Part shown: positions 7,601-42,024 of the stretch, one piece after another
How the letters are laid out: each line of letters opens with the position of its first letter
How positions within the stretch are numbered: the stretch's first letter is position 1
DNA from: Bacilli bacterium
GTDB taxonomy: Bacteria; Bacillota_I; Bacilli_A; RFN20; CAG-826
DNA length: 64,000 nucleotides
Direction: 5' to 3'
Assembly (NCBI GenBank): GCA_017540455.1
Contig: JAFYAZ010000039.1
Location: 5,587-69,586 of the forward strand
The notes under the pieces: model-generated
The model's database searches: none
Seen by the model: the letters and a program-made list of their open reading frames with translations, nothing else
What the model was told of the DNA's origin: nothing
Translations under genes and position numbers: made by a program

Positions 7601-7616
7601 AGCTAATCACCTCAAG

Positions 7617-8480: not shown

Positions 8481-8549
8481 AAAAAGCCCCCTACTACTTA
8501 AGTAAGGGGCTGATTCATGCAGGATTTGCTAGGGATTATTTGGCTTCGG
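8481..8549. repeat. 69-bp direct repeat, copy B (right boundary of island; functional 3' end and terminator of gene 8536..11613)
   Basis: See copy A. This copy includes the stop codon at 8536-8538 and the last four codons of the 1025-aa gene. Confidence 0.9.
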
Positions 8550-11624: not shown

Positions 11625-12356
11625 TTATTCGTTGACATCCTCAGTGCGGGCCACGAGGATTCGGGTGATGATCTTGCCGATTGTCGGCATCATCTCTAAG
11701 CCCGTGCGGATGTAGTTGATTCTTTCGCGTTCTTTGCCCATTTGCATCGCGACGCCTTTGATGGTCAAAAGGGCGGTGTTGTTAAGATGGCAAACCATCG
11801 CGATAGCGGCGCTTGTGTTGTCGTAAGCGCGCATGTTCTCTTCTTGGACGAGGAAGTGGTTTTGGACGATGGTTGAGACCTTATTCGGCATGAAATAGAA
11901 AGAGGAACCAGAAAGAAGGAAGCCTCTTTGGACGTATCTCGTCGTCATGAGATAAGCGTTCTTCTCAGCGCGGTCATTGATAAGGTTATCGGCGACGAAG
12001 AATGGGTCTCTTCCTGGGATTTGGCCATAGACGGCCTCTTTGTTATCGGTGAAATCGATGTCAGCGTAGAAATAACGGTCGGCGATGAATAAATCCCCTT
12101 GGCGGAGTTCGTCGCTGAAGCTATAGACCGAGCCGACATTGAAGACCATGTATGGGTCGAACTTCTCGATGATGAGGGTCATGATGATGCCGGCATCAAC
12201 AAGAGATGGTCCTGTCGCGGCAACGATGCAATCCTCACGGAAAATGCTGCCCTGATAGACTTTGAAGCCTCCGGTCAGGGTCACTTCTTTCGGATTCCCC
12301 ATCTTCGCTTTGAAATAGAGGATGTCGTCGCTAGTCGTACCGATTATGGCGATCAT
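11625..12356 (-). CDS. MTA/SAH nucleosidase (Pfs/MtnN, PNP_UDP_1 fold)-like protein, divergent
   Basis: 243 aa. It aligns by eye with E. coli MtnN: IAIIGTTSDD vs IGIIGAMEEE, YGQIPGRDPFFVAD vs YGQLPGCPAGFKAD, and SAAIAMVCH vs ATAIAHVCH. The region of the catalytic ISD(V) reads VAMQMG. Its start overlaps the stop of the upstream EAL gene (ATGA). Confidence 0.55.
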   Translation of the reverse strand: MIAIIGTTSDDILYFKAKMGNPKEVTLTGGFKVYQGSIFREDCIVAATGPSLVDAGIIMTLIIEKFDPYMVFNVGSVYSFSDELRQGDLFIADRYFYADIDFTDNKEAVYGQIPGRDPFFVADNLINDRAEKNAYLMTTRYVQRGFLLSGSSFYFMPNKVSTIVQNHFLVQEENMRAYDNTSAAIAMVCHLNNTALLTIKGVAMQMGKERERINYIRTGLEMMPTIGKIITRILVARTEDVNE

Positions 12357-13927
12357 TTGGCTACCTCCCCTGCTTTCTTCTTCTCGAATGGGTTATTGCT
12401 AAGGAATCTCTGGAATTCGAATTCGCCAAGCGGGCGGCTATAGTAATAGCCTTGGACGGCGTCGATGCCAAGTTCCTTGACGATGTTCTTCTGGATCTCG
12501 GTTTCCACGCCTTCGGCGATGGTCTTCATGCCTAAGGAATGTGAGATGTCATTGATGCAACGGACAAGGTCGCGGCTCTTCTGGTCAAGCTCAACCTCAT
12601 CGATGAAGGACTTATCGATCTTAAGGGTGTCGAAAGGAATCTTCTTTAAGGAAGAGAAAGCCGAATAGCCCATACCGAAGTCATCGATTGAGGTATCAAG
12701 GTCAAGGGCTTTGATCTTTCTGATCATGGCTGAGACGAAGACGGCGTCTTGAGCGGCCATGGATTCGGTGAGCTCAATCTCAATCCATTTAGGATTGATC
12801 TCGTATTTCTCCATCGTTTCCTTATAGAAAGAGAGGATATCTGGCGCAAGAGCGGTTTTTCTGGAAAGGTTGATGGAGACCTTAGGGATACGTTTTCCTT
12901 CGGCCTTCCACTTCTTCATGTTCTTGCAGACCTGCTCGAAGACGTATTTATCGACCTCGATGATACGGCCGGATTGCTCAGCGAACGGGATGAAGAGGGA
13001 TGGAGGGAGAAGACCACGGGATGGGTGGTTCCATCTGACAAGGGCTTCAGCGCCGAAGAAGGTTTCGTCATGAAGGTCGAATTTAGGCTGATAGAAGACT
13101 TGGAGCTGCTCTTCGTTGATGGCGTTGCCTAGTTCGCTAGAAAGGGAACGTTCGCCTTCATCATCCATCATGAATTCCTCGCTATAGACGATGACGTCGC
13201 TAGAGATACGGGATGAGAGGTTATAGGTGCCGGCGATTTGGGCTTTGCTATAGACGTCTTCGAAAGGCTGGCCATGATGGGCGTGATAGACGCCGCAAAG
13301 GATAGCGACATCAGGCATTGTGCCATCTTTCTCGAGGAGATAATTGACTCTTTGGCAGATGGACTGGAGCTCTTCGATGAAAAGGGATTCCTCCCCTCCT
13401 TTTTTGATGAGGATCCAACCCTTGGTTGGGGAGAAACCATAAGCGTAGTTCTTATTGTCTTTGCCAACCGCCTCATGTATCGCGGCATATAAAGCGTCGT
13501 TGATGATACGCGGTCCTTTTTGGCCATAGATGCTACGGAGTCGGGCGATGTTTCTGACATCGAGGACGGCAAAGAGGGATTCCGCTTTCCTTCTAAGCAT
13601 CATGTAGCGATAGTTCTGCTTCAAAGCAGATTCATTGAAGATATAGATCTCCTTCGTGAAGTTGTCTTTGGCGATATCTCTATCTATCGCCGACATCGCA
13701 AGGACGTTCTGGTAGAGAAGGGAGACGACGATGAGAACGGCGTTGACGATGATGGTGACATAAAGGCTGACGATGAAACCAGGCTTGTAGTAGCCTCTGA
13801 TCATGATCGTGTAAAGGATGATTGAGGCGATGGTGTTGATGCCTAAAAGGAGATAGATGATATAGGCGTTCCTCTGGTGGGTCTTATAAGAGAAACGGGA
13901 AGCGAAAAAGTTAAGTAATCGTCTCAT
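12353..13927 (-). CDS. membrane-bound c-di-GMP phosphodiesterase (degenerate GGDEF + canonical EAL)
   Basis: 524 aa with two N-terminal TM helices. The GGDEF position reads GFSPT, so it is degenerate. The full EAL signature set is present: QPKF, EALVRW, SINLS, EIELTES, DDFGMGYS, KIDKSF, EGVET and QGYYYSRP. Its start overlaps the sipW-like stop. Confidence 0.8.
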   Translation of the reverse strand: MRRLLNFFASRFSYKTHQRNAYIIYLLLGINTIASIILYTIMIRGYYKPGFIVSLYVTIIVNAVLIVVSLLYQNVLAMSAIDRDIAKDNFTKEIYIFNESALKQNYRYMMLRRKAESLFAVLDVRNIARLRSIYGQKGPRIINDALYAAIHEAVGKDNKNYAYGFSPTKGWILIKKGGEESLFIEELQSICQRVNYLLEKDGTMPDVAILCGVYHAHHGQPFEDVYSKAQIAGTYNLSSRISSDVIVYSEEFMMDDEGERSLSSELGNAINEEQLQVFYQPKFDLHDETFFGAEALVRWNHPSRGLLPPSLFIPFAEQSGRIIEVDKYVFEQVCKNMKKWKAEGKRIPKVSINLSRKTALAPDILSFYKETMEKYEINPKWIEIELTESMAAQDAVFVSAMIRKIKALDLDTSIDDFGMGYSAFSSLKKIPFDTLKIDKSFIDEVELDQKSRDLVRCINDISHSLGMKTIAEGVETEIQKNIVKELGIDAVQGYYYSRPLGEFEFQRFLSNNPFEKKKAGEVAK

Positions 13928-14985
13928 TGCTTTTCTCCTTCCTTAGCGAATTCGGCTAAAATCTTAGCCTTCTCTTCTTGCTTTATCCTTTCAAGCTCCT
14001 CCGATTTGGCGAGTTCTTCTTTGGCTTTCTTGAATTCTTCGAGGAAGAGGGCCTTCTGCTCTTGCTTCATGGCTTCCATCTCTTTCTCGATCTCTTTTCT
14101 CATCTGGTATTTCTCTTTGAAGATGAGGACGGCTTTCTCGTCGGTTGGATCGATACCGGCGGCAAGCATCTCCGCTTTCATCTCGTCTTCCTCTTTCTTC
14201 TTCTCGACGCGGTATCCCTTGATGAAATCAACGACCGTCATGCCTCCGATGATGAGGATTGGGACGAGGATGGCGACTGGGACGAACCAGACGCTTTGGA
14301 CGGTATGGAGGACGCCTCCGAAGAAGTGGCTATGTGAGATGACGTTGCCAACGTAGTACTTCGATTGGACGGTGTCCCTATATGTTGATTCAACGGCTTT
14401 GCCGGTGACTTTGGTGTACCATTCGGCGTTGAGGTTGTCGCCGCAGGTGTAGAAAGTCATCTCGGATTTGCCACTCCAGTTAGGGATGATATGGGTGAGG
14501 GTGTGCTCTTTGTCTTCTTTTGAGCGGGTCTGGAAGGATTTGCCTTCTTCGAGCTCTACGGTTTCGCCACCAGTGAACCAGGTAATACCGCTATCGATGG
14601 TATATTCGAAGGCAGGAGAGACTTCGAAAGAGCCTTTTTCCCCTGCTTTTGCTGGGGATTCCACGATTTCGATGACACGGTGGGAGACGCAGTATCCGAT
14701 CGCGTCGCTATAGAAGGCGATGATCTCGCCGGCTTTTACATCGTTAACGTCTTTCTTCTGGATGACGACGCCTTCGCCCGCGTCAAAGGAATCAGGATTC
14801 TTCCCTTCCATTGAGTCGGTGAGGACTTCCATGAAGCTATAGCCGAAAAGAGATGGGATGCCATAGTTGTTGTTCTTGGTGATGAACATATCAATCTGAA
14901 GTCCCAAAATCAAAACGATGAGGGCACCGAGGATGATGTCCACGATCTTCGAGGCGATTTTTTTCTTCTTCTTTTGCTCTTCCAT
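13924..14985 (-). CDS. sipW: SipW-type (ER/archaeal-type, S26B) signal peptidase I with large insertions and a C-terminal TM + E/K-rich coiled-coil tail
   Basis: 353 aa. It has an N-terminal TM, the catalytic-Ser box VLTDSMEG (cf. SGSMEP), the His box SHRVIEI and the GDN box TCGDNLNAEW. A second TM (VWFVPVAILVPILIIGGMTVV) is followed by ~100 aa of KE-rich predicted coiled coil. It is about twice the length I recall for B. subtilis SipW. Confidence 0.7.
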   Translation of the reverse strand: MEEQKKKKKIASKIVDIILGALIVLILGLQIDMFITKNNNYGIPSLFGYSFMEVLTDSMEGKNPDSFDAGEGVVIQKKDVNDVKAGEIIAFYSDAIGYCVSHRVIEIVESPAKAGEKGSFEVSPAFEYTIDSGITWFTGGETVELEEGKSFQTRSKEDKEHTLTHIIPNWSGKSEMTFYTCGDNLNAEWYTKVTGKAVESTYRDTVQSKYYVGNVISHSHFFGGVLHTVQSVWFVPVAILVPILIIGGMTVVDFIKGYRVEKKKEEDEMKAEMLAAGIDPTDEKAVLIFKEKYQMRKEIEKEMEAMKQEQKALFLEEFKKAKEELAKSEELERIKQEEKAKILAEFAKEGEKQ

Positions 14986-14989
14986 CTAA

Positions 14990-17041
14990 CTATTTGGCTT
15001 TCTTGATGCGGAAAACTTTTTCTTTGCTCTCTGGCTTCTCTTCTTTGGCGTCTTTCTTCACCTTGATGAACTTCGGCGAAGCGGCTTTGTTTTGCTCAGC
15101 GTGAGGACTACCGACGAAGGTGATATGTCCGAATGGGTCGGTCTTGATTCCGCCGATATCGAGTGCGTACTTCGAATAACCCCTACGGACGCGGACCACG
15201 GTAGGCGTGATCTTCTCGATTTTTTTGCTTGGGGCGATGATGGTCACTGTCTTTCCTCTTTCTTCTTCGGAGCGTTTCTCTTTTTCGACTTCGGCAAGGC
15301 GGGCTTTGTTCTTCTCTTCTTCGGCGAGCCTTTCTTCAAGTTCGGCGATTCGTTTGGCTTGGGACTCGTTTTCCTTCTGGAGCGCCTCTAACTGTTCTTT
15401 GTCGGCGTTATATTGCTCGAGCGGAACGGTGAAGGTCTGTCCATCGGAGAGGGCTTCTTCGGAGGCTGTCTCAACTGGAGCAGACTCCCCTGCAGCTTCT
15501 TCAGCGAGTGGCTCTGGTCCTTCGACGATTGGAGCAGGTCTACCCTTGGCGAGCTCATCGGCGATCGATTCATCAAGAGGAGCGTCTTCTTGCGCCATAG
15601 CGAGGATTCTTTCGCGGGCTTCTTTGAGGAGTTCGTTTTCTCTCGCTAAACGGATCTCGGTCTCGATTCTGATTTTTTCTTCGAGCTCACGGAGTTTCTG
15701 GGCTTCTTCTTCTTGGCGTTTGGCTTCAGCCGCAGCGCGTTCTTCTTCGAGTTGCTTCTCTTCCGCTTTACGGCGTTCCATCTCGGCGATGATGGCTTCC
15801 TGATCCATGAAGTTTCTCTCTTCTTCGGCTTGTTCACGGAGCTCTTTGGCGGTGAGCATCTCGGCGGTCAGGTATTCGTTGTCGCTTTCTTTGAAGGCTT
15901 TGACCTCGTCTGGGGTCCAGGCGAAATCCTTCTCTTCTGGCTCTCTTTCTGGGGTGACAAGAAGGGATTCGTGCTCTGGGAACTGGTCGTAGCGGAACTT
16001 ATGGGAAAGGAAGGTCTCATCCTCAAGAGAAAGCATGACCTTTGGCTCAAAATGCTTGGTCATCGCTTTGGCGGATTCCTTCTCATCCTTGGTTTTGACT
16101 TTTCTGTTGTCGATGAGGTGGGTATGGAGGGTGGCCATTGAGGCAGCGGTTAACCCATAGACCTCATTGAAGTAGCTCTCATCGAATTCGCCCTTCTTCT
16201 CCTCAATATCGAAGGAGATGCCGAGTTTGGTGTATGAATCGATGAACTTCCAAAGGACCGCGACTTTGTGGTAGTCAGGGTTCTTTAAAAGGAGGTTGGT
16301 CATCTGGAGTGGTGAGTGGACACTTTTGGCGTCCTTCATCTCCTCCATGAATGGGGACTTGATATAGAAGTTGACGCGTTCGGAAAGGTTCTTGATACGG
16401 GCAAGGAGCATCTTGTTCTTCTCGTATTCGCCTTTATCGTCGGATTCGATGGAGATCTTGATGCGATTATCGACTTCGTAACGGACTCCATCGATCTCGG
16501 TCTTTGAGTGGATGAAAAGAACATCGGAGTTACGGGTCTCACCCTTATCCGAGATGAACTGGACACGTTTCTCAACGAAGAAAGTGAGTCGCTGGATGAG
16601 AGACATAAGAACGCGGTTCTCATAGATCTGCATATCGACGTCGGAGCCGATTGAGAGAATGCGTTCAGGGACGATCTGGCCTTGCTTGTTGAAGCCATGG
16701 ATATAACGGGTATGGGACGCTAGATGGCGGATGGAGGTTGAGTTGATACGCTTGGCCTGTCCTGCTAAGACGAGATCCTGCGTCTCCTTGATGAAGGTAC
16801 GAGGATGGGCGATGATGCGGTCGATCGCGTCAAAGCCGGTGTCGAGCTCGGTGACCCATTTGTCGTCGTAGGTCTTGTTTTCGTGGCGGTTCCTTTGGAA
16901 AACACTGTTCTCCCCGGTCTTCTTGATGGCCTCAACGAACGACTTGAAAGGAAGGCTTCCCTTCAAGAGGGAATCCATCTTCTTCATGTAGTCAGCATGA
17001 ACGCGCGTCAGTTTTGCGGTGTCTTTTTCCTTTTTGGCCAT
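14990..17041 (-). CDS. 683-aa coiled-coil protein, partner of the McrB-like ATPase (McrC-position; no nuclease motif seen)
   Basis: The N-terminal ~340-aa globular part contains ...DMQIYENRVLMSLIQRL..., reminiscent of the (T/P)ENR-hydrophobic motif of McrC/DUF2357 N-domains. Residues ~370-620 are an E/K/A-rich coiled coil. The C-terminus is basic. It lies immediately downstream of the McrB-like gene. Confidence 0.45.
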   Translation of the reverse strand: MAKKEKDTAKLTRVHADYMKKMDSLLKGSLPFKSFVEAIKKTGENSVFQRNRHENKTYDDKWVTELDTGFDAIDRIIAHPRTFIKETQDLVLAGQAKRINSTSIRHLASHTRYIHGFNKQGQIVPERILSIGSDVDMQIYENRVLMSLIQRLTFFVEKRVQFISDKGETRNSDVLFIHSKTEIDGVRYEVDNRIKISIESDDKGEYEKNKMLLARIKNLSERVNFYIKSPFMEEMKDAKSVHSPLQMTNLLLKNPDYHKVAVLWKFIDSYTKLGISFDIEEKKGEFDESYFNEVYGLTAASMATLHTHLIDNRKVKTKDEKESAKAMTKHFEPKVMLSLEDETFLSHKFRYDQFPEHESLLVTPEREPEEKDFAWTPDEVKAFKESDNEYLTAEMLTAKELREQAEEERNFMDQEAIIAEMERRKAEEKQLEEERAAAEAKRQEEEAQKLRELEEKIRIETEIRLARENELLKEARERILAMAQEDAPLDESIADELAKGRPAPIVEGPEPLAEEAAGESAPVETASEEALSDGQTFTVPLEQYNADKEQLEALQKENESQAKRIAELEERLAEEEKNKARLAEVEKEKRSEEERGKTVTIIAPSKKIEKITPTVVRVRRGYSKYALDIGGIKTDPFGHITFVGSPHAEQNKAASPKFIKVKKDAKEEKPESKEKVFRIKKAK

Positions 17042-17082: not shown

Positions 17083-18669
17083 TTAACCAACGTCCTTGAG
17101 GAAGCCGGCGATCTTGGCTTTGGACATCTTGAACTCGGCTTTGCCAAAGAGCTTGGTGAGCTTGGCATCGAGTTCGATTAAGTCATCGCGTAAGTGGGCG
17201 ATGTTAAGGGATTCGAATTTCTTTAAGATCTTCGTGGCGAAGATGTAGTCAACGCCTTCAAGTTCGGTTCCGCCGGTGGCGACGTAGCATGGGACGAAGG
17301 CATTGAGCTGCTTAAGAATACGGTTACCAAAGGCAAGCTTAAAGTGTTGGATGACAAAGTCATCGAGCTCAGTGAACTTCTCTAAGGTCTTTCCGGAGAT
17401 TGGGAAGTTGCTATTGGCTTCGGCATAAAGCTTCATTAAGTATTCGAATGGGAGAGGGAGACCCTCGGTGAATGGCGCTTCAAAGGCGATACCTTTGTTA
17501 TCGAAGAAGAGCGACATAGCACGGTCATAGACCTTATCGGTGATGGTGAAGGTCGAGTCATCGTTGTTCGCGGTGCCGATGAACCAGACGTTCTGAGGGA
17601 TGAGAAGCTTACCATCATGGAGGTGCTTAGGATCGTCTTTCTGCGGGGAAGAGATGAGGTCGATGTTCCAGGCCGATGGGTTAGGCATTTCCATGATGGA
17701 AAGGAATTCGGCGAAGTAGTACTCGATACGGGCGATGTTCATCTCATCGAGGACGATGAGGTTGATGTCCTCTCTGAAGGTGGATTCGTAGATGCTTCTT
17801 AAGAATTCGGTCTCGGTGAACTTCTTGGTGAAGTCGTTGTAGAAGCCTAAGAGCTCGGAACGGTCACGCCAGGAAGGCTGGACGGAGCAGATGGTGCAGT
17901 TGTTCTGGAAGAATTTCCCCAAAGCGTATGGCAAAGAGGTTTTACCTGTACCGGAAATACCTTCGAGAATGATGATCTTGCCGGTTCCCATGGAAGCGAA
18001 GAAAGCGCGCATGGCTGGGATGGTGTAATAGAGTTTGAGCTGGGAAGCGGCGTAGTTTCTGAATCTTTCGACGATTTCCTGAAGGGAGATGTCGGTTGCG
18101 TCTGCTGGAAGTTCGACATGGGTGGAAATCTCAGCGTATTTCTCGTCGACGGCGATAAGACGAGGGAATCTGACGTCTTTCTCGCCTGGGACCCCTCCTT
18201 CTTCCGTTTCTTCGGTTTCTTGAGCGTTAGAAGAGGTGGAAATCTCGCTAGAACCTCCGACAGAGATCGATTCGGATGGGGATAGGCCAAGGGAATCGAG
18301 CTGGAGGCCAAGGATTCTGTTCTTTTCTTGGGTGGCGTTATAGAGTTCGATCTGAAGGTTCTGGACTTCTTCGCGGAGTCTTTCGCGATCGATCTCGGTG
18401 CGGTAGAACTTGATGTATTTTCTAAGCAGCCAATAGATGAGGAAAACGAGTGCGCCTATCGCTGCGACGAAGAAAATGGCAAAGAGGACGAAGAAGAACC
18501 AGCCCCAGAAGCCAAAACCGCTGGCGAAATTGTCGAAAATGATTCCGTACTGGACGAAATCATCTGGGACATCGGCCCACGGGACGGCCCATCTCTGGTT
18601 CAGCCATCTGCCGAAATTGGATAATACGGCGACGACCATTTCACGAAGGTAATTGAAATAGTTTTCCAT
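17083..18669 (-). CDS. membrane-anchored McrB-family (AAA_5) AAA+ NTPase
   Basis: 528 aa. An N-terminal TM helix (FGFWGWFFFVLFAIFFVAAIGALVFLIYWLL) is followed by a short coiled coil and an acidic/Ser linker. The AAA+ core has Walker A LEGISGTGKTS and Walker B plus the McrB signature LIVLDEMNIARIEYYFAEFLSIME (cf. E. coli McrB FIIDEINRANLSKVFGEVMMLME). It also has IPQNVWFIGTANNDDS...VYDRA (cf. VPENVYIIGLMNTADRS). No DNA-binding N-domain was recognised. Confidence 0.7.
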   Translation of the reverse strand: MENYFNYLREMVVAVLSNFGRWLNQRWAVPWADVPDDFVQYGIIFDNFASGFGFWGWFFFVLFAIFFVAAIGALVFLIYWLLRKYIKFYRTEIDRERLREEVQNLQIELYNATQEKNRILGLQLDSLGLSPSESISVGGSSEISTSSNAQETEETEEGGVPGEKDVRFPRLIAVDEKYAEISTHVELPADATDISLQEIVERFRNYAASQLKLYYTIPAMRAFFASMGTGKIIILEGISGTGKTSLPYALGKFFQNNCTICSVQPSWRDRSELLGFYNDFTKKFTETEFLRSIYESTFREDINLIVLDEMNIARIEYYFAEFLSIMEMPNPSAWNIDLISSPQKDDPKHLHDGKLLIPQNVWFIGTANNDDSTFTITDKVYDRAMSLFFDNKGIAFEAPFTEGLPLPFEYLMKLYAEANSNFPISGKTLEKFTELDDFVIQHFKLAFGNRILKQLNAFVPCYVATGGTELEGVDYIFATKILKKFESLNIAHLRDDLIELDAKLTKLFGKAEFKMSKAKIAGFLKDVG

Positions 18670-18693
18670 TATTTCTCTCCTCTTTTGATGGTG

Positions 18694-19755
18694 TTAGTTG
18701 TTCGTTGGCGCCACGGTGCGGTGCTCACCCATAAAGGCGATATGCGCATTGAAGGCGGCGTTGATGAGGTCGTTGGAGCATTCTTTGTCCCAACCCTCAA
18801 GGTAGATGGTGATGACGAGTCTCTTGACCTCGTTTGGGGCGATGTAGGTCACCCACTTCTTCGTATGAAGAAGCTCGGAAAGGGAATAGGTCTCCTCTTC
18901 TTTGATCTTGAGGTTTCCTTCGCTGACCGATTTATCAAGGTTGAGATGCCTGATGCCGGCTTTCGTCTTGCCTCCGACACCTGGTTTGGCGTTGTCGTAT
19001 TCATGATGTTCGACATCATGGTCCACGGCGTCATCGTAAATCAAATTGGCGTCTTCATTATATTCCCCATACAATACTTCTTCAAAAGAAGAATTGTAAT
19101 CGATGTATCCGTCATAGAAGCTGACATCGAGGAGGCCGCCTAATTTGGTCTTGCTTCCAGTTTCGACATTCGGCTCATAAATGACATATCCATCTTCCGA
19201 GTAGAAGGACACGCGGATGGCGTCTTCAACAGAGTTGAGGGCTTCCACGCTGGTGCCGGTCTGGACAGCGGTGACCTCGTTGCGGGCGTTATTGGCTCTG
19301 ACGGAGGTGGTTGGGTCGAGATAGACATAGGTTCCAACGTCGCTAGTGAGGAAGATCTCCTGCTGGTAGAAGCCACTTGTGGCCTCGCCGGTCTCACGGT
19401 ATCCCCTGGCAGAAGGGTATTCGCTAGAGAGGGTCGGGAATCTGTCGTTAAGATAGACGCTGTTATCCTGGAACATCGAGCTCACTGGAGTGAGATAGAA
19501 TTCGCCGTCATTGGAGATGCTGTCCCCTGCTGCGAACTCGATCATGCCAAGCTCGTTTCTTTCACCGATGCGGATATCGTGGTTGGTTGCTTCAACGTGG
19601 ATGTTTCCGACGGTGAGGAAGTCAGAGACGCTGAACCAGGCGATCGTGGAGGTGACGAACGCGCTCAAAGTAAGCGAAAAAAGGGCTAAAGCAGCCCAAA
19701 GCAGGCTTTGTTGCCTGACGCCGATTTTTTTCACTCTACGTACGCGCGTAAACAA
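18694..19755 (-). CDS. exported TasA/camelysin-like protein (paralog 3) with SipW-class signal peptide
   Basis: 353 aa. The signal is ...LLWAALALFSLTLSAFVTSTIAWFSVSD (cf. TasA ..GGGTWAAFND, CalY ..GGGTFAYFSD). It shares AIRVSFYSED, YLDPTTS and the C-terminal VITIYLEGWDKEC strand with the other three paralogs. The TTG start lies unusually close to its GGGAGG, so the exact start is uncertain. Confidence 0.6.
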   Translation of the reverse strand: MFTRVRRVKKIGVRQQSLLWAALALFSLTLSAFVTSTIAWFSVSDFLTVGNIHVEATNHDIRIGERNELGMIEFAAGDSISNDGEFYLTPVSSMFQDNSVYLNDRFPTLSSEYPSARGYRETGEATSGFYQQEIFLTSDVGTYVYLDPTTSVRANNARNEVTAVQTGTSVEALNSVEDAIRVSFYSEDGYVIYEPNVETGSKTKLGGLLDVSFYDGYIDYNSSFEEVLYGEYNEDANLIYDDAVDHDVEHHEYDNAKPGVGGKTKAGIRHLNLDKSVSEGNLKIKEEETYSLSELLHTKKWVTYIAPNEVKRLVITIYLEGWDKECSNDLINAAFNAHIAFMGEHRTVAPTNN

Positions 19756-19768
19756 AATCCTCCCTTAC

Positions 19769-20797
19769 TTACTCTGAAATTTCTTCAGAAGCGTTTAACA
19801 CGCTTCCGGTCGACTCGTCTCTTGCCCAGGACTGGGTGAGGTTTTCGCTCGTGAAGTGCATCGACATCGTCAAAGCGGAACCCACAGGGTTCTCACCCAC
19901 ACAGTCGGCGTCGAAGCCTTCGAGCCAGATGACGACGGTGAAGCGTCGGATCTCACGAGGCATGAGATAGGTCTCATTCTTCATGACGATCATCGCTAAC
20001 GGATCACTTCCGTCGTCGTTAAGGAAATTCGTGCAATATCCTTTGTTCTCTTCTCTTTTCGCCGTGTATCCGTTGGTGGTCTCAGTGGTTCCGGTGATGA
20101 GCTCATTGTTCGAGGCGTTGGTCGAGAATGACTTCGCTCTGCGTGCGTATGTGCCCACCATCTCGTGCTTGAGTTCATTCTCGTCGAAGTGAGAGTCATA
20201 GACTCTGACCCTGACGATGTCCTCAATCGAACAGCTGGCATCAACGTTGGATGGTTCGGTGATGGAGGAGAAATCGATGTAGTAGTTTGCTTTTGCCATT
20301 TCGCTTGGCGAGGAGTTCCTTAAGTAGAATGTGTACTTGAAAGAATAGTCTTGGGTGTTCTCGACATCGGTCGGAGCGTTCTTGCGGCTTCCGAGGATGA
20401 CGGATTCATCGGCGACATCGGCATCGACGAAGTCCTCTTCGAGGAGATCGTCCGCGCACATCGGCGTGGTGCACTCATAACCGCCTGCCATCAGGTAAGT
20501 GGTTCTGTTTTTAAGATCGGTGCCTGAGGTGCTTGATGTGAGCGAATCACCGATCGAGAGCTCGTTTCTGACTTGCTCAAGTTTGACGGTGAATGAACCG
20601 AAGTTACGGCCTAAAAGGGCGATGATGATGAGAACGGTGAGAACGCTGATGGACACGCCTAAAATGATGGCGGCGATACGCCTTCTGCGTCTGCGCTTAA
20701 GAAAATCAGGCTCTCTTGGCTCGATCAACTTGACCGCAGAGTCGCTGCCATTATCTAAAGTAACTGTCTCAACAGGCTCTATTTGTTCCAAAACCAT
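19769..20797 (-). CDS. membrane-anchored TasA-like paralog (paralog 4); first gene of the riboswitch-controlled operon
   Basis: 342 aa. A ~40-aa cytoplasmic N-tail ending RRRRRR is followed by a TM (IAAIILGVSISVLTVLIIIALLG). The ectodomain has IVRVRVYDSH and VVIWLEGFDADC motifs shared with the paralogs. A GGAGG RBS lies 2 nt upstream of ATG 20797. Confidence 0.55.
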   Translation of the reverse strand: MVLEQIEPVETVTLDNGSDSAVKLIEPREPDFLKRRRRRRIAAIILGVSISVLTVLIIIALLGRNFGSFTVKLEQVRNELSIGDSLTSSTSGTDLKNRTTYLMAGGYECTTPMCADDLLEEDFVDADVADESVILGSRKNAPTDVENTQDYSFKYTFYLRNSSPSEMAKANYYIDFSSITEPSNVDASCSIEDIVRVRVYDSHFDENELKHEMVGTYARRAKSFSTNASNNELITGTTETTNGYTAKREENKGYCTNFLNDDGSDPLAMIVMKNETYLMPREIRRFTVVIWLEGFDADCVGENPVGSALTMSMHFTSENLTQSWARDESTGSVLNASEEISE

Positions 20798-20879
20798 AAC
20801 CTCCTTGAAAAAGGCTCTTAGCTTTGTTTGTTCAAAGCAAAACCAAAGGTTTTATGTAAGAGTATTTTAGTTCAATGAT

Positions 20880-20935
20880 GGCGAAAGAAAAACGGCGCTA
20901 CTTCTCTCTGCGCCGCCGGGACGAGGCTTTCGCCT
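20880..20935 (-). terminator. intrinsic terminator = expression platform of the c-di-GMP riboswitch
   Basis: The minus-strand RNA is CGGCGC-agagagaagua-GCGCCG followed by UUUUUCUUU (stem at + 20893-20898 / 20910-20915). It is enclosed by an outer pairing GGCGAAAG/CUUUCGCC (+ 20928-20935 / 20880-20887). It lies ~85 nt upstream of the first start codon. Confidence 0.7.
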
Positions 20936-20997
20936 ACCATCAGAATCACTTTTGTTCCAGGGCACAAGCAGAAGATTCTGGATATTCACGCTCATCG

Positions 20998-21110
20998 ACC
21001 CAGTTGCCCACTGAATCTAGAGTACTGAACTCCAGGCAACTGGCTACCACGCATATATTGCGAGGCCCTGTAGCTTTGCGTCGCCATGTTTCCATGGGTT
21101 TGCTATACAC
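20998..21110 (-). promoter_or_regulatory. c-di-GMP-I (GEMM-I) riboswitch aptamer
   Basis: The minus-strand RNA is GCGUGUAUAGCAAACC-CAUG-GAAA-CAUG-GCGACGCAAAGCUACAGGGCCUCGCAAUAUAUGCGUGGUAGCCAGUUGCC. It contains GCAAACC, a GAAA-capped stem, the near-invariant GACGCAAAGC, the second helix GCUAC...GUAGC and a trailing CAGUUGCC. This matches my memory of Vc2 and Bacillus GEMM-I sequences. Confidence 0.8.
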
Positions 21111-21114
21111 GCAT

Positions 21115-21143
21115 ATAATAGGTAAGGATTTTTACGTTGTCAA
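21115..21143 (-). promoter_or_regulatory. SigA-type promoter driving the riboswitch and operon
   Basis: The minus strand reads TTGACA (+21143-21138), a 17-nt spacer, then TATTAT (+21120-21115). The predicted TSS is a few nt before the aptamer. Confidence 0.7.
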
Positions 21144-21620
21144 GAGGGACGCACTCACTTTTTTTACAATCCTGAAAGCGTTTTCAAATTCTTTAGACAA
21201 TTTATAGTCATGCGCATCCTTATATTTATATACATACGCGCAAGAAGAGGGTCTTCTGGATCTGAGACCGGTGGTTTTGTAAAGATGAACCCCTACTTCT
21301 AGCTGGTTTTGGATTCAGATTTGACTGTTTTGAGAATTTCGTTCTTGAATTGTAAAGTTTTCTATGTTGTGAAAAGTCCACTGCCAATCGAGTATTTTAA
21401 ACTTTCTTAAAAATTGTTGAGTGTATTGCACTTGCAAAGATTCCAATCGTTATCTAAACTTATGGTGTCCTCAAAAAGGGCTCAAAAACAACTTGCCCGT
21501 TGTTCCTTCGAGAGGATGGTCGGACGATCACTCCGACGGTAAAGAAAGAAATCCATCAGAACCCAGACAATTGAAGCTGGGCTTTTCTGCTTATAAGCTT
21601 CAAGGAAGGAAATTACGATT

Positions 21621-22721
21621 ATGACCAATAGATCAAAAATGATTCTCGGCTTAGCCTCACTCCTCGGCGTCACCGCTGGTGCCACTGCTGTTTCCGGCTT
21701 TGCCTGGTTCGTTACCACCAAGACTGCTGATGTCAGCGTCACCAACATTAAAGTCTTCAATGACAACCCATCCCTCTCTGTCAGACTCGAGAACTTAGAA
21801 GGTGTCAAGCTCACTAATGATGCTGCAAACAACTTCGCCCTCAAGGCTGCCAAAGATACAACCAGCGTCGACGAAGAGTGGACTGCTGCTGCTGACCAAA
21901 CAGACTTCGTTCTCCCAACTAAACCACTTGCCGCTCCAACCGTTACTATTGACGGTGTGGTCGACACCACGCTTCATTCCTATGATGCTGCTAATAAGAC
22001 GATTCACTTCGATGCTGCTCCTGGTGCCGGCAAGAAAATCCGTGCTACCTACTATGACAAAGCTGCCTTAACCGACGTCAGCTCCTTGAATGGTAAGGAT
22101 TTCTATGATCCTACCTGGGAAACCGCCAACGAAGGTAAGAAAGCTACCTTAATTGATGACGCGGTTGCGGGCGAGCAGTACATCGCCTTCGATATGGTCT
22201 TCAGCGCTCCAACCACCGGAAGCCTCAAGGTCTATCTCAGCCAACCTTCAATCGAGGGCATCGACGAAACGAACAATACTGCTGACGCTGCTGCCGCTTC
22301 TGTTGCCCGTGTTGGTTTCTACAACGAAGATACCCACGCGAGTGTCCTTACTCTTTCTAGAAACATCGGCGACCATTACAACAAAGGCATCAGCAAAACC
22401 AAAGTTGAAAGTTACGATACCGGTAGCGGCACCGTCAATGCAAACACCGTCGACGGCCACTACACCATCGATCCAAACGTTCTTGACACCTGCACCACTC
22501 TTGCCACCCCATGTGCCACCGACTACAGCGTCATGAGCTCAGCTCCAACTTCAGGAACCGACCTTTCTAACAACTTCATCGCTCTTATCGACGGCTCAGA
22601 CGTTAGACTTCACGTCACCATTTGGCTTGAAGGAACCTCTAACACCACTGATGGAGACTACAGCGCTCCTATCGGCGGAGAAATCAACGTCACCCTCCCA
22701 ATTGTCGCCTTTGGCGCCTAA
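21621..22721 (+). CDS. exported TasA/camelysin-like fibre-subunit candidate (paralog 1), SipW-class signal peptide
   Basis: 366 aa with an AAGGAAGGA RBS. The signal is MTNRSKMILGLASLLGVTAGATAVSGFAWFVTTK. It is Thr/Ala/Asp-rich with only two Cys in the mature part. The C-terminal strand HVTIWLEGTSNT resembles the TasA C-terminal ..LQFSFEATQ. It shares LTDVSS.NG..FY.P.W, LKVYL..PSI and ARVGFYNED with paralog 2. Confidence 0.65.
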   Translation: MTNRSKMILGLASLLGVTAGATAVSGFAWFVTTKTADVSVTNIKVFNDNPSLSVRLENLEGVKLTNDAANNFALKAAKDTTSVDEEWTAAADQTDFVLPTKPLAAPTVTIDGVVDTTLHSYDAANKTIHFDAAPGAGKKIRATYYDKAALTDVSSLNGKDFYDPTWETANEGKKATLIDDAVAGEQYIAFDMVFSAPTTGSLKVYLSQPSIEGIDETNNTADAAAASVARVGFYNEDTHASVLTLSRNIGDHYNKGISKTKVESYDTGSGTVNANTVDGHYTIDPNVLDTCTTLATPCATDYSVMSSAPTSGTDLSNNFIALIDGSDVRLHVTIWLEGTSNTTDGDYSAPIGGEINVTLPIVAFGA

Positions 22722-22772
22722 TCGAGATCGATCACTCGACTTCTCAATTTCTTAATTAAGGAGAAAACAAAA

Positions 22773-23879
22773 ATGACAAAAAAATCAAAGATGATTCTTG
22801 GCCTCGCTTCCATGCTTGGCGTCTCAGCCGGTGCTGCCGCTGTTAGCGGCTTCGCCTGGTTCACCACCACCAAAAAAGCCACCGTTGATGTCACTAACAT
22901 CGGCGTCTACAGCAAGAGCAGCAACCTCAACGTTCAATACACCGCCGCTGTTAAAGGATGTATCGACGATCCTAACGATGCCTCAAGTGTTGGCGATATT
23001 AATATCATGGCTAGCGCAGAAAAGACCCAAAACTTCACTGGCGACGGAACCACCACTTCGTTCACCCTTGACTTAGAACCTTATGCAGCTCCAACCGCTA
23101 CCGTCGATGGGAATACCACTGCCGTCACTTGGACATCCGGAAAAACCATCTCATTCGCATCCGCACCTGGCAACGGCCTCCCTATCGTCGTTACCTACAA
23201 GACTCATTCAGTCTTAACAGACGTTTCTTCTGTCGATGGACAAAAGTTCTACAAACCAGTTTGGACTGCCGGAAACGAAGGCTTATATGCCACTTCAATC
23301 TTGTCTTCTGCTCTCCCGACACCAACCCTTACCGAAGGTTGGCTCTCCTTCACAATGACTCTTACCGCAAATGGTAGCAGCCCACTTAAAGTATTCCTCA
23401 ATACCCCAAGCATCACGGCCGCTACTGGTGCTACCACAGAACAACAGGACGCAAATGATGCCGCTGCGGAGATCGCCCGTGTCGCGCTTATCGAAGATGA
23501 AACCCACTATTTGGTTTTACAAAATACTAGCGTCGCTACGAACAATCTTGGCATCAACCAAACTTATGTCAACGACAACAGCTTAAAGACTAATGGCTTG
23601 TACGATTTGTCAAAACTTGCTGAAGAAGTTGATGAAGACCATTTCGCAATTCCTAACGCTTCCGACAAGAGCAATCTATCTGATGCTCCAGCGGAGAACG
23701 CTACGCAGAACTACGTTACTACTGTCCCAGCCGGCGCATCTAAAGTTATCACCGTCGCCATTTGGCTCGAAGGAACAAGCCACATCACCGCTTATACCGC
23801 TCCTTCTGGCGGTGGCAGCTATTCTGCCGATCCAGCAAACGGTATCTTCAGTGTGGCTCTCCCACTCATCGCCTTCTAA
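22773..23879 (+). CDS. exported TasA/camelysin-like fibre-subunit candidate (paralog 2), SipW-class signal peptide
   Basis: 368 aa with an AAGGAG RBS. The signal is MTKKSKMILGLASMLGVSAGAAAVSGFAWFTTTK. The C-terminal strand is ITVAIWLEGTSHIT and the C-terminus is ..LPLIAF (paralog 1 ends ..LPIVAFGA). It sits in tandem, 51 nt after paralog 1. Confidence 0.65.
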   Translation: MTKKSKMILGLASMLGVSAGAAAVSGFAWFTTTKKATVDVTNIGVYSKSSNLNVQYTAAVKGCIDDPNDASSVGDINIMASAEKTQNFTGDGTTTSFTLDLEPYAAPTATVDGNTTAVTWTSGKTISFASAPGNGLPIVVTYKTHSVLTDVSSVDGQKFYKPVWTAGNEGLYATSILSSALPTPTLTEGWLSFTMTLTANGSSPLKVFLNTPSITAATGATTEQQDANDAAAEIARVALIEDETHYLVLQNTSVATNNLGINQTYVNDNSLKTNGLYDLSKLAEEVDEDHFAIPNASDKSNLSDAPAENATQNYVTTVPAGASKVITVAIWLEGTSHITAYTAPSGGGSYSADPANGIFSVALPLIAF

Positions 23880-23899
23880 TCAACATCACTAACGATTTA

Positions 23900-23926
23900 G
23901 CCTTCCCTCACGGGAGGGCTTTTTCT
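23900..23926 (+). terminator. intrinsic terminator after the tandem TasA-like genes
   Basis: The hairpin is GCCTTCCC-tcac-GGGAGGGC (8 bp including one G-U) followed by TTTTTCTT. Confidence 0.7.
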
Positions 23927-24161: not shown

Positions 24162-24545
24162 CTATTTCTCTTCCTCGGATTTCTTGGATTGGTTCCTGAT
24201 CTCCGCGAGAGCTTCTTCTCTAGCCTGTCTCTTGGCTTCTTCGAGAAGGTCGTTCTTCTCTTGATCGCTGAGCATCGATTCTCTCTTGGTCGCGTACATG
24301 ATGAGGTAAACACCATCAACGACGAAGATAAGGAAGAGAGGGAGAACAATCGTGCAAGCGAAGAGGATTGAGTTGTTCTGAAGGGTGCCGATGAATGGAC
24401 CGTTGAGATCAAGGTTCTTCTGCTGGTTCGCATTAGGATCGATCGTGACCATGACCCAGATCGAGACGATGAGACAGAAGATAATCACACACACCTCGAT
24501 TGCGGCGATGATGATAAGAGCTTTTTTGCTGAGAGGTTTATTCAT
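24162..24545 (-). CDS. small membrane protein, hypothetical
   Basis: The ORF 24162..24569 is trimmed to ATG 24545 (MNKPLSKK...), which has AAGGAA 6 nt upstream. It has two TM helices and a charged C-tail. The terminator AACCGG...CCGGTT plus a U-run lies at about 24117-24141. Confidence 0.55.
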   Translation of the reverse strand: MNKPLSKKALIIIAAIEVCVIIFCLIVSIWVMVTIDPNANQQKNLDLNGPFIGTLQNNSILFACTIVLPLFLIFVVDGVYLIMYATKRESMLSDQEKNDLLEEAKRQAREEALAEIRNQSKKSEEEK

Positions 24546-24708
24546 AAAACATTCCTTAAATCGACCCAAAAGGTCGGTGAATGGGCTTTTTTATAAGTTA
24601 ATACTAGACCATATGTATTAAAATCGCAAATATTTACGCATCTGAGCATATCATTAGGCTTATTTGGACACTCTACATATAATGGTGGTGTTCCTTAGGG
24701 ATGACGAT

Positions 24709-25406: not shown

Positions 25407-26402
25407 TCAGAGATACACACAATCGCAACCCTCTGGCACAACAAGATGGGAGTTTCCCTCTTCGTCGAGATAGTACTCATCGCACACAAAGTCCATCACC
25501 CTTTTAATAGGGAGCAAGTAGAAAACCGTTTTTTCCGGCACATAGTATTTGAAGTCATAATCGTACTTGTCATCAAGGTCGAATAGATTCGTGCCAGTTC
25601 TTGTTCTTTCATAGACGAAACGATATTGATTGGTGAAGTATAGGGCGAATGTGCCACGATAATGGAACTGGTAGTATTTTCTATGGTCGCTCTCGTTCTT
25701 TAACGTGACGCTCTTTTGCTCTTCAGCGTAGGAAACTTCCGTTCCTGCTACCCATTTCAGATCGCTGTAGAGACCATTTGACACCACAGTGGAAGATTCG
25801 GGTCCAGCTACGCCCCATGTTTTAAAATCCGCAAGGCTGTTGCCGGTACCGAGGCTGATGCCAAGCCTTTCGAATTCTGATTCTGCGATTTTATTGACGC
25901 GGTCAATCACGTCAGCGGTGTTCTCGGTTGAAACGGGCCTACTAGGCACCGTTAAAGTGACTGTGGTGTCGCTATTTGGAGGCAAGCTAAGGATGCTGCT
26001 ATCTTCCACAGGAAGGCTGACATACTTCGCGAATTTGTATGTAAAGGTCTTTTTGTCGGTGAGCCATTCGGTGAGTGGTTCCTGCCAATACACCCAGTTG
26101 GAAAGGTAGGTTACGCGTTCCTTGTCATAATGAGCCGTTTCAACGCTTATGACGTCGCCGAAAATCTCATTGGTCGAACGCGCAAATTCAATGAGCGAGT
26201 TGCCTTTTCCGACGATATCGAAATCATTGCAGACGTCATCGGCATAGATGACGTTAGGTCCGTCCACAAACGGAGCGGATGGATCATAATAATCCGAATC
26301 CTCTATTAGAGACCGAGACTCAGGAGCTGTGCACGAAGCAAGGGAAATGAGCGCAATAACGTTGATTATCTTTTTGGCTAAACGATTCTTTTTGGCTTTC
26401 AT
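25407..26402 (-). CDS. lipoprotein, hypothetical
   Basis: The track ORF is trimmed to ATG 26402 (MKAKKNRLAKKIINVIALISLASC), with AAAGGGG upstream. Lipobox is LASC. I recognised no family. Confidence 0.6.
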   Translation of the reverse strand: MKAKKNRLAKKIINVIALISLASCTAPESRSLIEDSDYYDPSAPFVDGPNVIYADDVCNDFDIVGKGNSLIEFARSTNEIFGDVISVETAHYDKERVTYLSNWVYWQEPLTEWLTDKKTFTYKFAKYVSLPVEDSSILSLPPNSDTTVTLTVPSRPVSTENTADVIDRVNKIAESEFERLGISLGTGNSLADFKTWGVAGPESSTVVSNGLYSDLKWVAGTEVSYAEEQKSVTLKNESDHRKYYQFHYRGTFALYFTNQYRFVYERTRTGTNLFDLDDKYDYDFKYYVPEKTVFYLLPIKRVMDFVCDEYYLDEEGNSHLVVPEGCDCVYL

Positions 26403-26535
26403 ACGATTACCCCTTTCGCAAACGGTGAGATTATAGAATTTTTCGCGCGAAATAATCAAGCCGTTTAATAGGCTTTTTTTCGAGTTTGATTGTTTGCGGT
26501 ATCAAATAAAAAATACCCTGCAAAACCAAGGTATT

Positions 26536-36991: not shown

Positions 36992-36995
36992 ATCT

Positions 36996-38282: not shown

Positions 38283-38336
38283 TTTCTTTGTTGTCGAAAA
38301 AGGGCTTTTACTCGATTATTCCTTACTTTTTGGGAC

Positions 38337-38422
38337 TTTTCCACATAGAGGGAATTCCGCCAAATCCACACACTGACGGAAGAATGCCATCTTTGTCACA
38401 AAAGGAAATTGAGTTATCCACA
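38337..38422 (+). promoter_or_regulatory. cluster of three co-oriented DnaA-box-like 9-mers
   Basis: TTATCCACA (38414-38422) is a perfect consensus. TTTTCCACA (38337-38345) has 1 mismatch and AAATCCACA (38362-38370) has 2. The cluster lies in the divergent dnaB / pfkA intergenic region. Confidence 0.5.
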
Positions 38423-38541
38423 TTTTTATCCTCATTCTTTCGGTAGATTGTCCCCTACCTTTTATATAGATAAAAAATCTTCAAATTTGGCCCCTAAAAA
38501 ATCCTAACTATCCAGAAATATATGTAATATAATCGTTGTGA

Positions 38542-39522
<981 letters not shown>

Positions 39523-39681
39523 AAGACAAAGGGGATGCCAGTCATCTCCTTTTTTGGTTGTTTGACTTTGTCTACTGATTATTTGTATATTGGATTCCGT
39601 ATGGACAAAATCTTAGCGAAGGCTGGAATAACTACTCAATAGAAACTGGCAACGCTACAATGATAGCCTAATCGATCATCT

Positions 39682-41778: not shown

Positions 41779-41793
41779 AGAAAATCCTTTTTC

Positions 41794-42006: not shown

Positions 42007-42024
42007 CGCCCAGAAAGGTCACTT

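Follow-up and report, generated by a model that had tools for sequence, protein, structure and literature searches.

What, if anything, do four related genes of an uncultured Bacilli bacterium assemble on the cell surface? The genes, named here P1, P2, P3 and P4, are the four open reading frames (ORFs) in the interval 18694-23879 of a 64-kb stretch of DNA (contig JAFYAZ010000039.1; we call the whole stretch the window), and a preliminary description of the sequence had taken them for a paralog family of two major subunits and two minor or anchoring ones, with the fibre protein TasA as analogy. Its observations were confirmed by our comparison with related loci, and its interpretation is partly supported, having been strengthened by the locus context: P1-P4 are probably the subunits of a cell-surface fibre (pilus), specified by a CoCoPALM-type locus (Bell et al., 2024) of uncultured rumen and gut Bacillota.

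Four paralogs and their conserved locus

By sequence, P1 and P2 are unambiguous paralogs: BLASTP aligns them with 146 identities in 386 positions (38%, E 6e-59), and all of the internal blocks that had been listed as shared, i.e., AAPT(V/A)T(I/V)DG, LTDVSS..G..FY.P.W...NEG, LKV(Y/F)L..PSI, DAAA..ARV and IWLEGTS, fall within this alignment. Their first ~45 residues, previously called almost identical, are conserved (35 of 46, or 76%), a figure for which that wording was slightly generous. The further claim that this conservation acts on the protein holds: 16 of the 35 identical residues differ in codon, nucleotide identity over the 46 codons is 70%, and the proportion of synonymous differences (pS) is 0.62, a saturation that excludes recent duplication or gene conversion. 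The ratio of nonsynonymous to synonymous rates (dN/dS), a check proposed in the preliminary description, was computed for P1/P2 by the NG86 method and came to 0.17 in codons 1-46 and 0.31 overall, values that are only indicative because dS is saturated. The homologs of P1/P2 form 87 clusters, which divide into a P1-type (at least 50% identity) and a P2-type (35-40%), so that the duplication must be old.

P3 and P4 are alignable only over their C-terminal ~46 residues (33% identity, E 2e-7), where IYLEGWDKEC of P3 faces IWLEGFDADC of P4; IRVSFY and VRVRVY are also present, and, as had been stated, the RVxxY and (W/Y)LEGxDxxC blocks are all that the two have in common. Neither P1 against P3 (E 0.14) nor P1 against P4 (E 0.025) is significant pairwise, and the claim of a four-member family was instead borne out by comparison of family profiles (hhalign) with intermediates from 31 related loci. 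These intermediates include three extra paralog groups, two of them (M1 and M2) located between the P4-like gene and the P3-like gene and one (U) upstream of tm135, a small gene described below. The P3 and P4 families matched with 93-95% probability over the C-terminal 46 columns and the P1/P2 and P4 families with 69-79%, whereas P1/P2 matched P3 directly with only 22%. The P3 family was joined to M2 with 99.8% and to M1 with 98.6% probability (271 columns), the P1/P2 family to M1 with 94.4%, and both to U over the N-terminus (P1/P2 85%, P3 92.8%). In addition, the AlphaFold2 models of P1 and P4 are both beta-sandwiches with the same order of conserved strands: first strand, YxFxL, RVxxY, xxIWLEG and last strand. 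We therefore accept P1-P4 as one superfamily, in which P1/P2 are tied to P3/P4 through short segments and intermediates.

The superfamily is large and has no Pfam model. P1-P4 matched nothing in Pfam, NCBIfam or PADLOC; homolog searches returned 28 clusters for P3 and 22 for P4, and a P4-family profile run against 1.84 billion representatives returned 1134 clusters at E≤0.001, with members typically of 250-300 amino acids. No Pfam domain was present in 49 sampled P4-family members, and among 10 looked up by exact sequence all named ones were "hypothetical protein" from metagenome-assembled genomes (MAGs) of Bacilli or Oscillospiraceae. Overall, the family members whose source was looked up or whose locus was fetched come mostly from MAGs of uncultured gut and rumen Bacillota.

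A scan of GTDB (one genome per species) with the P3 family as query returned 31 loci, which we annotated by hidden Markov models (HMMs) and phmmer on their ORFs. Most belong to MAGs of rumen or gut origin that carry the labels Bacilli, Erysipelotrichaceae, Ca. Enterosoma, Ca. Coproplasma or Clostridia, and two to bins labelled Prevotellaceae and Paludibacteraceae; the nearest are from water-buffalo and cattle rumen, with P3 97-99% identical. One order recurs: tm135, riboswitch, P4-like gene, 0-3 further paralogs, P3-like gene, AAA528, cc683, peptidase, EAL gene, PNP gene, EAL gene (Table 1). The P4-like gene is always first after the riboswitch and the P3-like gene always last before the AAA+ gene. 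Genes of the P1/P2-type occur in closer relatives only, divergently transcribed and outside the riboswitch operon, and distant loci have a different paralog upstream of tm135, again outside that operon. The locus, syntenic with dnaE and polA across genomes, is a stable feature of the core genome and no mobile island. For a Clostridia-type P4 homolog (L034) the context is too short to show more than an adjacent EAL gene.

Signal motif, predicted folds and variable middles

Every paralog other than P4, in the window and in the related loci, has a weak hydrophobic region that is closed by the motif G(S/T)xAW(F/Y), as in VSGFAWF of P1, TSTIAWFSVSD of P3 and, elsewhere, GGTFAWY and GSTFAWFTSNED. 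We aligned this motif with the signal end of TasA, which we take to be ...GGTWA↓AFND, and by this alignment and the -3/-1 rule cleavage would fall after ...G(S/T)xA and leave W-F/Y as the new N-terminus, i.e., TSTIA↓WFSVSD in P3. (The start of P3 itself is called in several orthologs from a position at least 8 codons downstream of the listed TTG; its C-terminus carries YLEGWDKEC.) In the AlphaFold2 model of P1, which is all-beta with a predicted local distance difference test score (pLDDT) of 83, residues 1-38 are unpacked, including the invariant W29 and F30. Among 41 P1/P2 sequences W29, F30, T32, T33, K34 and A36 are invariant or nearly so, in a segment whose pLDDT stays below 45.

P4 is different, as the preliminary description had noticed in its Arg-rich tail and apparent membrane anchor. 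Its N-terminus, predicted to be cytoplasmic, carries the Arg-rich stretch LKRRRRRRIAA and is followed by a strong transmembrane segment (Kyte-Doolittle 3.04, against 1.74-1.85 in P1-P3), directly after which comes the first strand, GSFTVKLE, without an AWF motif. The AlphaFold2 model (pLDDT 82.5) has a helix at residues 31-64 with pLDDT >90 and, after it, a predicted extracellular beta-sandwich that ends in IWLEGFDADC. Because of the strong transmembrane helix, the Arg-rich tail, the lack of the AWF motif and the first place after the riboswitch, we read P4 as a putative anchor or base, and P3, well conserved and in every locus the last of the subunit genes, as a putative minor subunit.

The conserved N-terminal segment of P1-P3 could also have been kept for another reason: in a fibre like a type IV pilus, hydrophobic N-termini would be retained as the fibre core, the McrB-like GTPase encoded in the operon would be the extension motor that raises subunits out of the membrane, and the SipW-like protein would only trim a short leader or act as a platform. 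The hydrophobic segment A12-F30 is indeed extremely conserved (largely invariant among the 41 P1/P2 sequences), the system has a membrane-anchored nucleoside triphosphatase (NTPase), and the P1 N-terminus weakly matches TIGR04205, a class III signal (E 0.092), yet the hydrophobic regions of P1-P3 are weak, that of P1 has pLDDT <45 with no helix predicted, unlike in P4, and the motif that closes it aligns with the TasA cleavage site. With no G↓F/M-TLxE motif, and no PilD-, PilB- or PilC-like gene among the ORFs scanned for domains (those of at least 150 amino acids in positions 1-28863 and 36086-49827), such a fibre seems highly improbable. Two known classes of pilus were also tried as candidates and rejected. 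For type IV pili proper there is no prepilin motif, and no prepilin peptidase or PilB/PilC-type domain in the cluster or the other scanned ORFs; for sortase-dependent pili, the C-termini of P1-P4 (...LPIVAFGA, ...LPLIAF, ...RTVAPTNN and ...ASEEISE) have neither LPXTG nor a transmembrane tail, and no sortase was found among the scanned ORFs.

For the reading as a fibre, the closest model is TasA. In Bacillus subtilis the tapA-sipW-tasA operon encodes the SipW peptidase together with its substrates (PMC9674648); TasA, a jellyroll whose mature form starts at residue 28, polymerises through the N-terminal strand 28-38 that starts at the cleavage site (PMC9674648; PMC13082335), its F29 being buried in the next subunit, and the TapA N-terminus is similar (PMC9674648). 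The window locus has in common with TasA/TapA/SipW of B. subtilis and TasA/CalY/CapP of B. cereus a dedicated signal peptidase of the endoplasmic-reticulum/archaeal type encoded with its (here putative) substrates, predicted signal peptides of these substrates that end in a motif like G-T-x-A-x-F, subunits that are modelled here as beta-sandwiches, a proposed major subunit with a sequence-related accessory subunit, and assembly that would be sortase-independent. The peptidase here is the product of g353, whose catalytic domain carries SM, HR and GDN motifs. It matches the NCBIfam models NF046067 (SipW, E 3.6e-14) and TIGR02228 (E 2.4e-10), through which the SipW link was made (phmmer against PDB gave no match), and its Ser58, Met59 and His102 are invariant in 18 homologs. 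Among paralogs of the related loci, one (L033 cluster) matches TIGR04088, the SipW-cognate signal, with 21.8 bits against a cutoff of 19, another (L032) comes close to it at a sub-threshold E of 0.028, and a third (L029, 8319-9914) matches both the P3-family HMM (E 3e-9) and, below the cutoff (18.7 against 22.5 bits, E 0.0017), PF12389, the camelysin/TasA family.

Several results weigh against so close a kinship. In the window, the N-termini of P1-P3 had no match to TIGR04088 at E≤10 and P1-P4 none to PF12389 (Peptidase_M73) at E≤1, and the same family was absent at E≤0.1 from the 49 P4-family members. Sequence-profile searches of PDB with the P1/P2 and P4 families returned only noise, without TasA even at E≤10. 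In Foldseek searches the P1 model had no global match in PDB, its inserted domain (see below) alone matching phage proteins, and the P4 model had none at E≤0.001: CanA (9hdi) stood at rank 6 and the TasA fibre (8aur) at rank 20, the likeness to 8aur_A being weak (E 0.015, probability 0.69, TM-scores TMq 0.24 and TMt 0.34) and mixed with MAM, carbohydrate-binding module (CBM) and MSCRAMM folds. The SipW scores of g353 lie below the curated NCBIfam cutoffs (52.7 against 190 bits and 40.5 against 51.85 bits), and in many of its distant orthologs the Asp of GDN, which is the third catalytic residue, is replaced, giving GIN or GTN, with Ser and His kept (alignment A7, SipW-like proteins of L017-L030); to judge from this alignment, these enzymes may work as a Ser/His dyad or use another acidic residue. 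Finally, we know of no TasA-type system that needs an NTPase, so that the role of the McrBC-like pair encoded in this operon is not explained by the analogy.

The TasA analogy is thus kept in part. It is carried by the SipW-type peptidase of the operon, by the G(S/T)xAW(F/Y) motif and by the TIGR04088 match in a related locus, and it is not carried by the window proteins themselves, which are no detectable members of TIGR04088 or Peptidase_M73 and have only a weak structural match to TasA. We regard the system as SipW/TasA-like by context and signal motif, and its subunits as no more than possible members of the TasA family. It also differs in having at least four differentiated paralogs, one of them anchored by a transmembrane segment, and larger subunits with inserted domains. 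Similarly, the archaeal donor-strand fibres (the bundling pili of AbpA, the cannulae of CanA and threads) consist of chaperone-free beta-sandwich subunits that donate an N-terminal strand, and CanA 9hdi, like TasA 8aur, is among the weak matches of the P4 model; however, this structural likeness is slight (E 0.006-0.015, TM-score 0.18-0.34), there is no sequence relationship, and those fibres involve no NTPase.

An indication of what P1 and P2 do comes from their variability between genomes that are otherwise nearly the same (related loci used for comparison bear L-numbers). Between the window and L001, P1 is 50% and P2 47% identical, while the other shared genes are 89-98% identical (P3 91%, P4 93%, AAA528 98%, DnaE 98%, PolA 98%), with the exception of EAL524 at 76%; between the window and L003, P1 is 52% identical as against 97% for P3, 99% for P4 and 100% for AAA528. 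The DNA itself is 94% identical to L003 over 18601-21869 and then collapses, the break lying near P1 codon 83, at the start of the inserted domain, and against L001 only the middles of P1 (21783-22609) and P2 (22937-23747) lack homology at the DNA level. In alignment A2 the commonest residue accounts for 0.90-0.99 of sequences at P1 residues 11-30 and for 0.84 at residues 331-340, compared with 0.3-0.6 in the middle. Judged from these alignments, the middle is a hypervariable cassette that is exchanged between near-identical genomes, with conserved termini on either side. Purifying selection, which had been proposed for the family, therefore applies to the termini, not to the middle.

The cassette begins at an inserted beta domain of ~70 amino acids (~21867-22070, P1 residues ~83-150, with a matching part in P2) that bears the pattern FTGDG..T.F.L...P.V.VDG and resembles N-terminal domains of the tail fibres and tailspikes of phages, both in BFVD (68-90 columns, root-mean-square deviation 2-4 Å, 22-26% identity) and in PDB (9d84_B, TMt 0.74). 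As a side observation, the two P1-type genes of L012 (6083-7904) are short (302-306 amino acids), which suggests that they lack this domain; their N-termini are almost identical to each other, and recent local duplication or conversion is therefore suggested there, unlike in the window.

Filament shaft proteins such as flagellins and type IV major pilins show this arrangement of conserved termini around an exposed middle that can be exchanged: in them the termini build the filament and the middle is swapped by recombination between strains; the fold and assembly machinery of those proteins are unrelated. On account of this pattern we read P1 and P2 as putative major subunits, and the division into two major, one minor and one anchor subunit that had been put forward fits the comparative data, in which P4-like genes come first, P3-like genes come last, and the fast-evolving P1/P2-type genes stand outside the operon.

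Variability of this kind would also be expected if the proteins do not polymerise at all and are adhesins, a coat or a surface-layer-like array, trimmed by the SipW-like peptidase or anchored through P4, whose middles vary under phage, protozoal or host pressure and whose termini serve for export and docking on P4. The exposed hypervariable middle, the beta-sandwich folds, which weakly match MSCRAMM adhesins, MAM domains and CBMs, and a phage-tail-fibre-like inserted domain that could bind glycans all suit such proteins. Three things count the other way: the paralogs are differentiated and stand in fixed order across distant taxa, anchor first and P3 last, as is typical of ordered filament assembly; conservation is strongest just past the predicted cleavage site, in a segment that is unpacked in the monomer model; and there are the ties to TasA/camelysin and to SipW-cognate signals. 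We therefore consider non-polymerising surface proteins unlikely, and return to the fibre.

McrBC-like partners and regulatory elements

Downstream of P3 the operon continues with AAA528 and cc683, which set the locus apart from tapA-sipW-tasA (Table 1). AAA528 has Walker A GISGTGKT, Walker B LDEMN and the motif TANNDDS, and matches McrB in PDB (6hz4, E 0.0018) and NCBIfam (E 0.0015) and the PADLOC model PDC-M26A (E 8.5e-38). The N-terminal domain of cc683 matches PF09823 (DUF2357) with 26.1 bits against a gathering score of 23.3, as do 17 of 19 orthologs (best E 4.6e-13); McrC was not retrieved in a PDB profile search with this domain, the link to McrC being made through the Pfam family, and no nuclease domain was detected in cc683.

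This combination has a precedent. One paragraph of Bell et al. (2024, eLife, PMC11090510) names as CoCoPALM the systems of an NxD-type clade of McrB GTPases, which are fused to an FtsB-like module of transmembrane segment plus coiled coil and paired with coiled-coil McrC homologs; the associated proteins of the signal-peptidase family are called likely pilus assembly factors there, and their description is deferred to a future paper. The text of the supplement, so far as it was available, does not mention CoCoPALM, and no follow-up publication was found in the literature searched. As far as that paragraph allows, the window locus matches a CoCoPALM-type system at the sequence level in all three defining features: AAA528 is the McrB-like GTPase with transmembrane segment and coiled coil, cc683 the DUF2357 McrC homolog with coiled coil (both coiled coils recognised here by eye), and g353 the associated signal-peptidase-family protein. 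The motif TANNDDS is compatible with the NxD clade, its reading being ambiguous. The subunit family, the organisation into anchor, minor and major subunits, the hypervariability, the riboswitch and the link to EAL genes are all absent from the searchable text of that paper.

Could the locus be a McrBC-derived defence or abortive-infection system, in which P1-P4 are phage sensors or decoys and the cyclic diguanylate (c-di-GMP) elements are coincidental? PDC-M26A is a candidate-defence model, restriction systems are the nearest relatives of the GTPase pair that have been characterised (PMC11090510), and P1/P2 are hypervariable with a phage-tail-fibre-like domain; on the other hand, cc683 has no detectable nuclease domain, the locus belongs to the core genome in synteny with dnaE and polA and is no mobile island, and EAL genes, a signal peptidase and a c-di-GMP riboswitch are in tight linkage with it. 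A gene of PD-(D/E)xK type and a UvrD-like helicase gene do lie downstream, but outside the conserved cluster. A defence function thus appears very unlikely. Given the fixed order of the paralogs, the SipW link, the missing nuclease and the core-genome synteny, we hold all three alternatives to be less likely than the fibre.

Table 1. Genes and regulatory elements of the locus, with their positions in the window.
Feature	Position	Strand	Description
EAL1025	8536-11613	-	two transmembrane segments, ~750 residues without assignment, degenerate EAL domain
PNP_UDP_1-family protein	11625-12356	-	nucleoside phosphorylase superfamily; conserved in the cluster
EAL524	12353-13927	-	two transmembrane segments, EAL domain, motifs intact (EALVR, DDFGMGYS, EGVET)
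g353	13924-14985	-	SipW/archaeal-type signal peptidase I; transmembrane segment, catalytic domain, second transmembrane segment, cytoplasmic K/E-rich tail
cc683	14990-17041	-	DUF2357 (McrC N-terminal domain), then long E/K-rich stretch (coiled coil by eye)
AAA528	17083-18669	-	one transmembrane segment (60-78), heptad-rich stretch (coiled coil by eye), McrB-like AAA+ domain
P3	18694-19755	-	353 amino acids; conserved minor subunit (proposed role)
P4	19769-20797	-	342 amino acids; membrane-anchored base subunit (proposed role)
Terminator-like hairpin	20884-20917	-	CGGCGC...GCGCCG and U-run; between aptamer and P4 start; presumed expression platform
c-di-GMP-I riboswitch aptamer (RF01051)	21032-21114	-	full length, 56.5 bits (gathering threshold 35); in the P4-operon leader
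Sigma-70-like promoter	21115-21143	-	TTGACA-17-TATTAT, 11/12 consensus matches; immediately upstream of the aptamer
P1 leader	21465-21612	+	~150 nt; hairpins, terminator-like stem, anti-Shine-Dalgarno pairing
P1	21621-22721	+	366 amino acids; major fibre subunit (proposed role); weak signal at the N-terminus, closing with ...VSGFA↓WF (predicted cleavage), near-invariant N-terminus, inserted domain, hypervariable middle, conserved C-terminal IWLEGTS strand
P2	22773-23879	+	368 amino acids; old P1 paralog, second putative major subunit
Terminator-like hairpin	23899-23920		3' of P2
tm135	24162-24569	-	small protein with two transmembrane segments and K/E-rich tail; beside the riboswitch in most loci

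The operon is headed by a c-di-GMP-I riboswitch: an RF01051 aptamer, directly preceded by a promoter-like site, lies 235 nt before P4, and 12 of 14 related loci tested have it directly upstream of the P4-like gene as well. In simple minimum-free-energy folding, the terminator hairpin forms when the aptamer is sequestered, and in the free fold the 3' arm of the hairpin pairs with aptamer sequence. These folds would suggest an OFF switch; we draw no conclusion on the direction, since the energy differences are ~3 kcal/mol and the pairing is long-range. Surface structures under c-di-GMP riboswitches are familiar from Clostridia, for example the flgB and pilA1 leaders of C. difficile. The window shares with them a GEMM-type riboswitch in the leader of an appendage operon, whereas the appendage and its machinery are different.

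P1 is preceded by a leader of its own that is near-invariant in L001, L003, L005, L007, L008 and L009, loci whose coding DNA reaches only 75-94% identity and whose spacer is otherwise poorly conserved. A covariance model finds it (124-128 bits) also upstream of both P1-like genes in L010 and of the single one in L011; it is absent from L012 and more distant loci, and no Rfam family matched it. Its predicted structure contains hairpins, in one of which three pairs are compensatory, a terminator-like stem ahead of a U-run, and, on the 5' side, the sequence UCCU, complementary to the Shine-Dalgarno AGGA and paired with it. The leader is a candidate for a new RNA that regulates the major-subunit genes in cis.

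Two further genes connect the operon to c-di-GMP. EAL524 is predicted from its intact motifs to be an active phosphodiesterase, while the EAL domain of EAL1025 lacks the EALxR and DDFGTG motifs; this gene is kept at the cluster end, and its product may act as a receptor of c-di-GMP and not as an enzyme. The McrB-like AAA+ gene, the DUF2357 gene, tm135, the two EAL proteins and the c-di-GMP riboswitch are all present here and all missing from tapA-sipW-tasA, and with its McrBC-like pair, riboswitch and EAL genes, which the preliminary description had not noticed, this locus is more than a copy of the TasA system.

On the side away from the P4 operon, P1/P2 are flanked by tm135. In L024 (123-1166) and L029 (5968-6783) the position of tm135 is taken by a SipW-like peptidase with a TDSMAP or SDSMAP motif that phmmer relates to tm135 (E 5e-6 and 3e-12), and tm135 may therefore be a paralog of the peptidase that has lost the catalytic domain. 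Topology predictions place the AAA+ domain, cc683, the tails of the peptidase and of tm135 and the P4 N-terminus in the cytoplasm, and several of these are rich in K/E heptad-like sequence.

Beyond the cluster, 4625-7600 (minus strand) encodes a UvrD-like helicase with topoisomerase-type zinc ribbons, adjoined by a 245-amino-acid protein (both within 4625-8354, minus strand) that matches the PADLOC model PDC-S69 / HEAT_CxxC_PD-DEXK (E 8.5e-27); the pair lies outside the conserved synteny and may be a defence module adjoining the cluster. On the other side, a 350-amino-acid ORF (25407-26459, minus strand), whose N-terminus may be lipoprotein-like and which matched no family, lies between mntR/dtxR-like and exonuclease III genes; the window and L008 have this ORF and L001 does not, so that it is a strain-variable insertion.

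Proposed assembly and its meaning

In the fibre model, P1, P2 and P3 would be exported with a TasA-like signal peptide and cut after ...G(S/T)xA by the SipW-type peptidase of the operon (13924-14985), so that the mature proteins would start at W-F/Y; by analogy with TasA, the new N-terminal segment would then insert as a donor strand into the beta-sandwich of a neighbouring subunit. P1 and P2 would form the abundant, surface-exposed and antigenically variable shaft, P3 would be a conserved minor subunit (adaptor, initiator or tip), and P4, keeping its transmembrane helix, would form the membrane-anchored base. On the cytoplasmic side, the McrB-like AAA+ protein, tethered to the membrane, and the DUF2357 protein paired with it may link the hydrolysis of nucleotides to fibre assembly or to the control of assembly, with contacts made through the K/E-rich cytoplasmic tails (coiled coil by eye) that they have in common with the peptidase and tm135. 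A trans-membrane complex is plausible in which this McrBC-derived GTPase gates or powers the processing and polymerisation of subunits at the P4 base. The input from c-di-GMP would be threefold: through the riboswitch before P4, through a predicted active EAL enzyme and through a degenerate EAL protein. As a more tentative proposal, the locus could represent a distinct and previously undescribed route of filament biogenesis in monoderm bacteria, in which TasA-like, SipW-processed subunits are assembled on P4, an exapted McrBC GTPase drives or gates the process, c-di-GMP acts at three levels, and a leader RNA controls the P1/P2 genes.

For CoCoPALM, known so far by name only, these genes provide the first concrete candidate substrates together with a proposed architecture in which an anchor, a minor subunit and major subunits are told apart. 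The donor-strand principle of TasA/SipW would extend to a large family that has no Pfam model and whose P4 branch alone exceeds 1000 clusters at 50% identity, and the system is tied to c-di-GMP signalling, which has been little studied in these lineages; the P1 leader may add a new regulatory RNA. The extreme strain-level variability of P1 and P2 suggests that they are a main target of recognition by phages, protozoa or the host in the rumen. If the model is true, the McrB/McrC motor of a restriction enzyme has been put to use in building or controlling a fibre on the cell surface.

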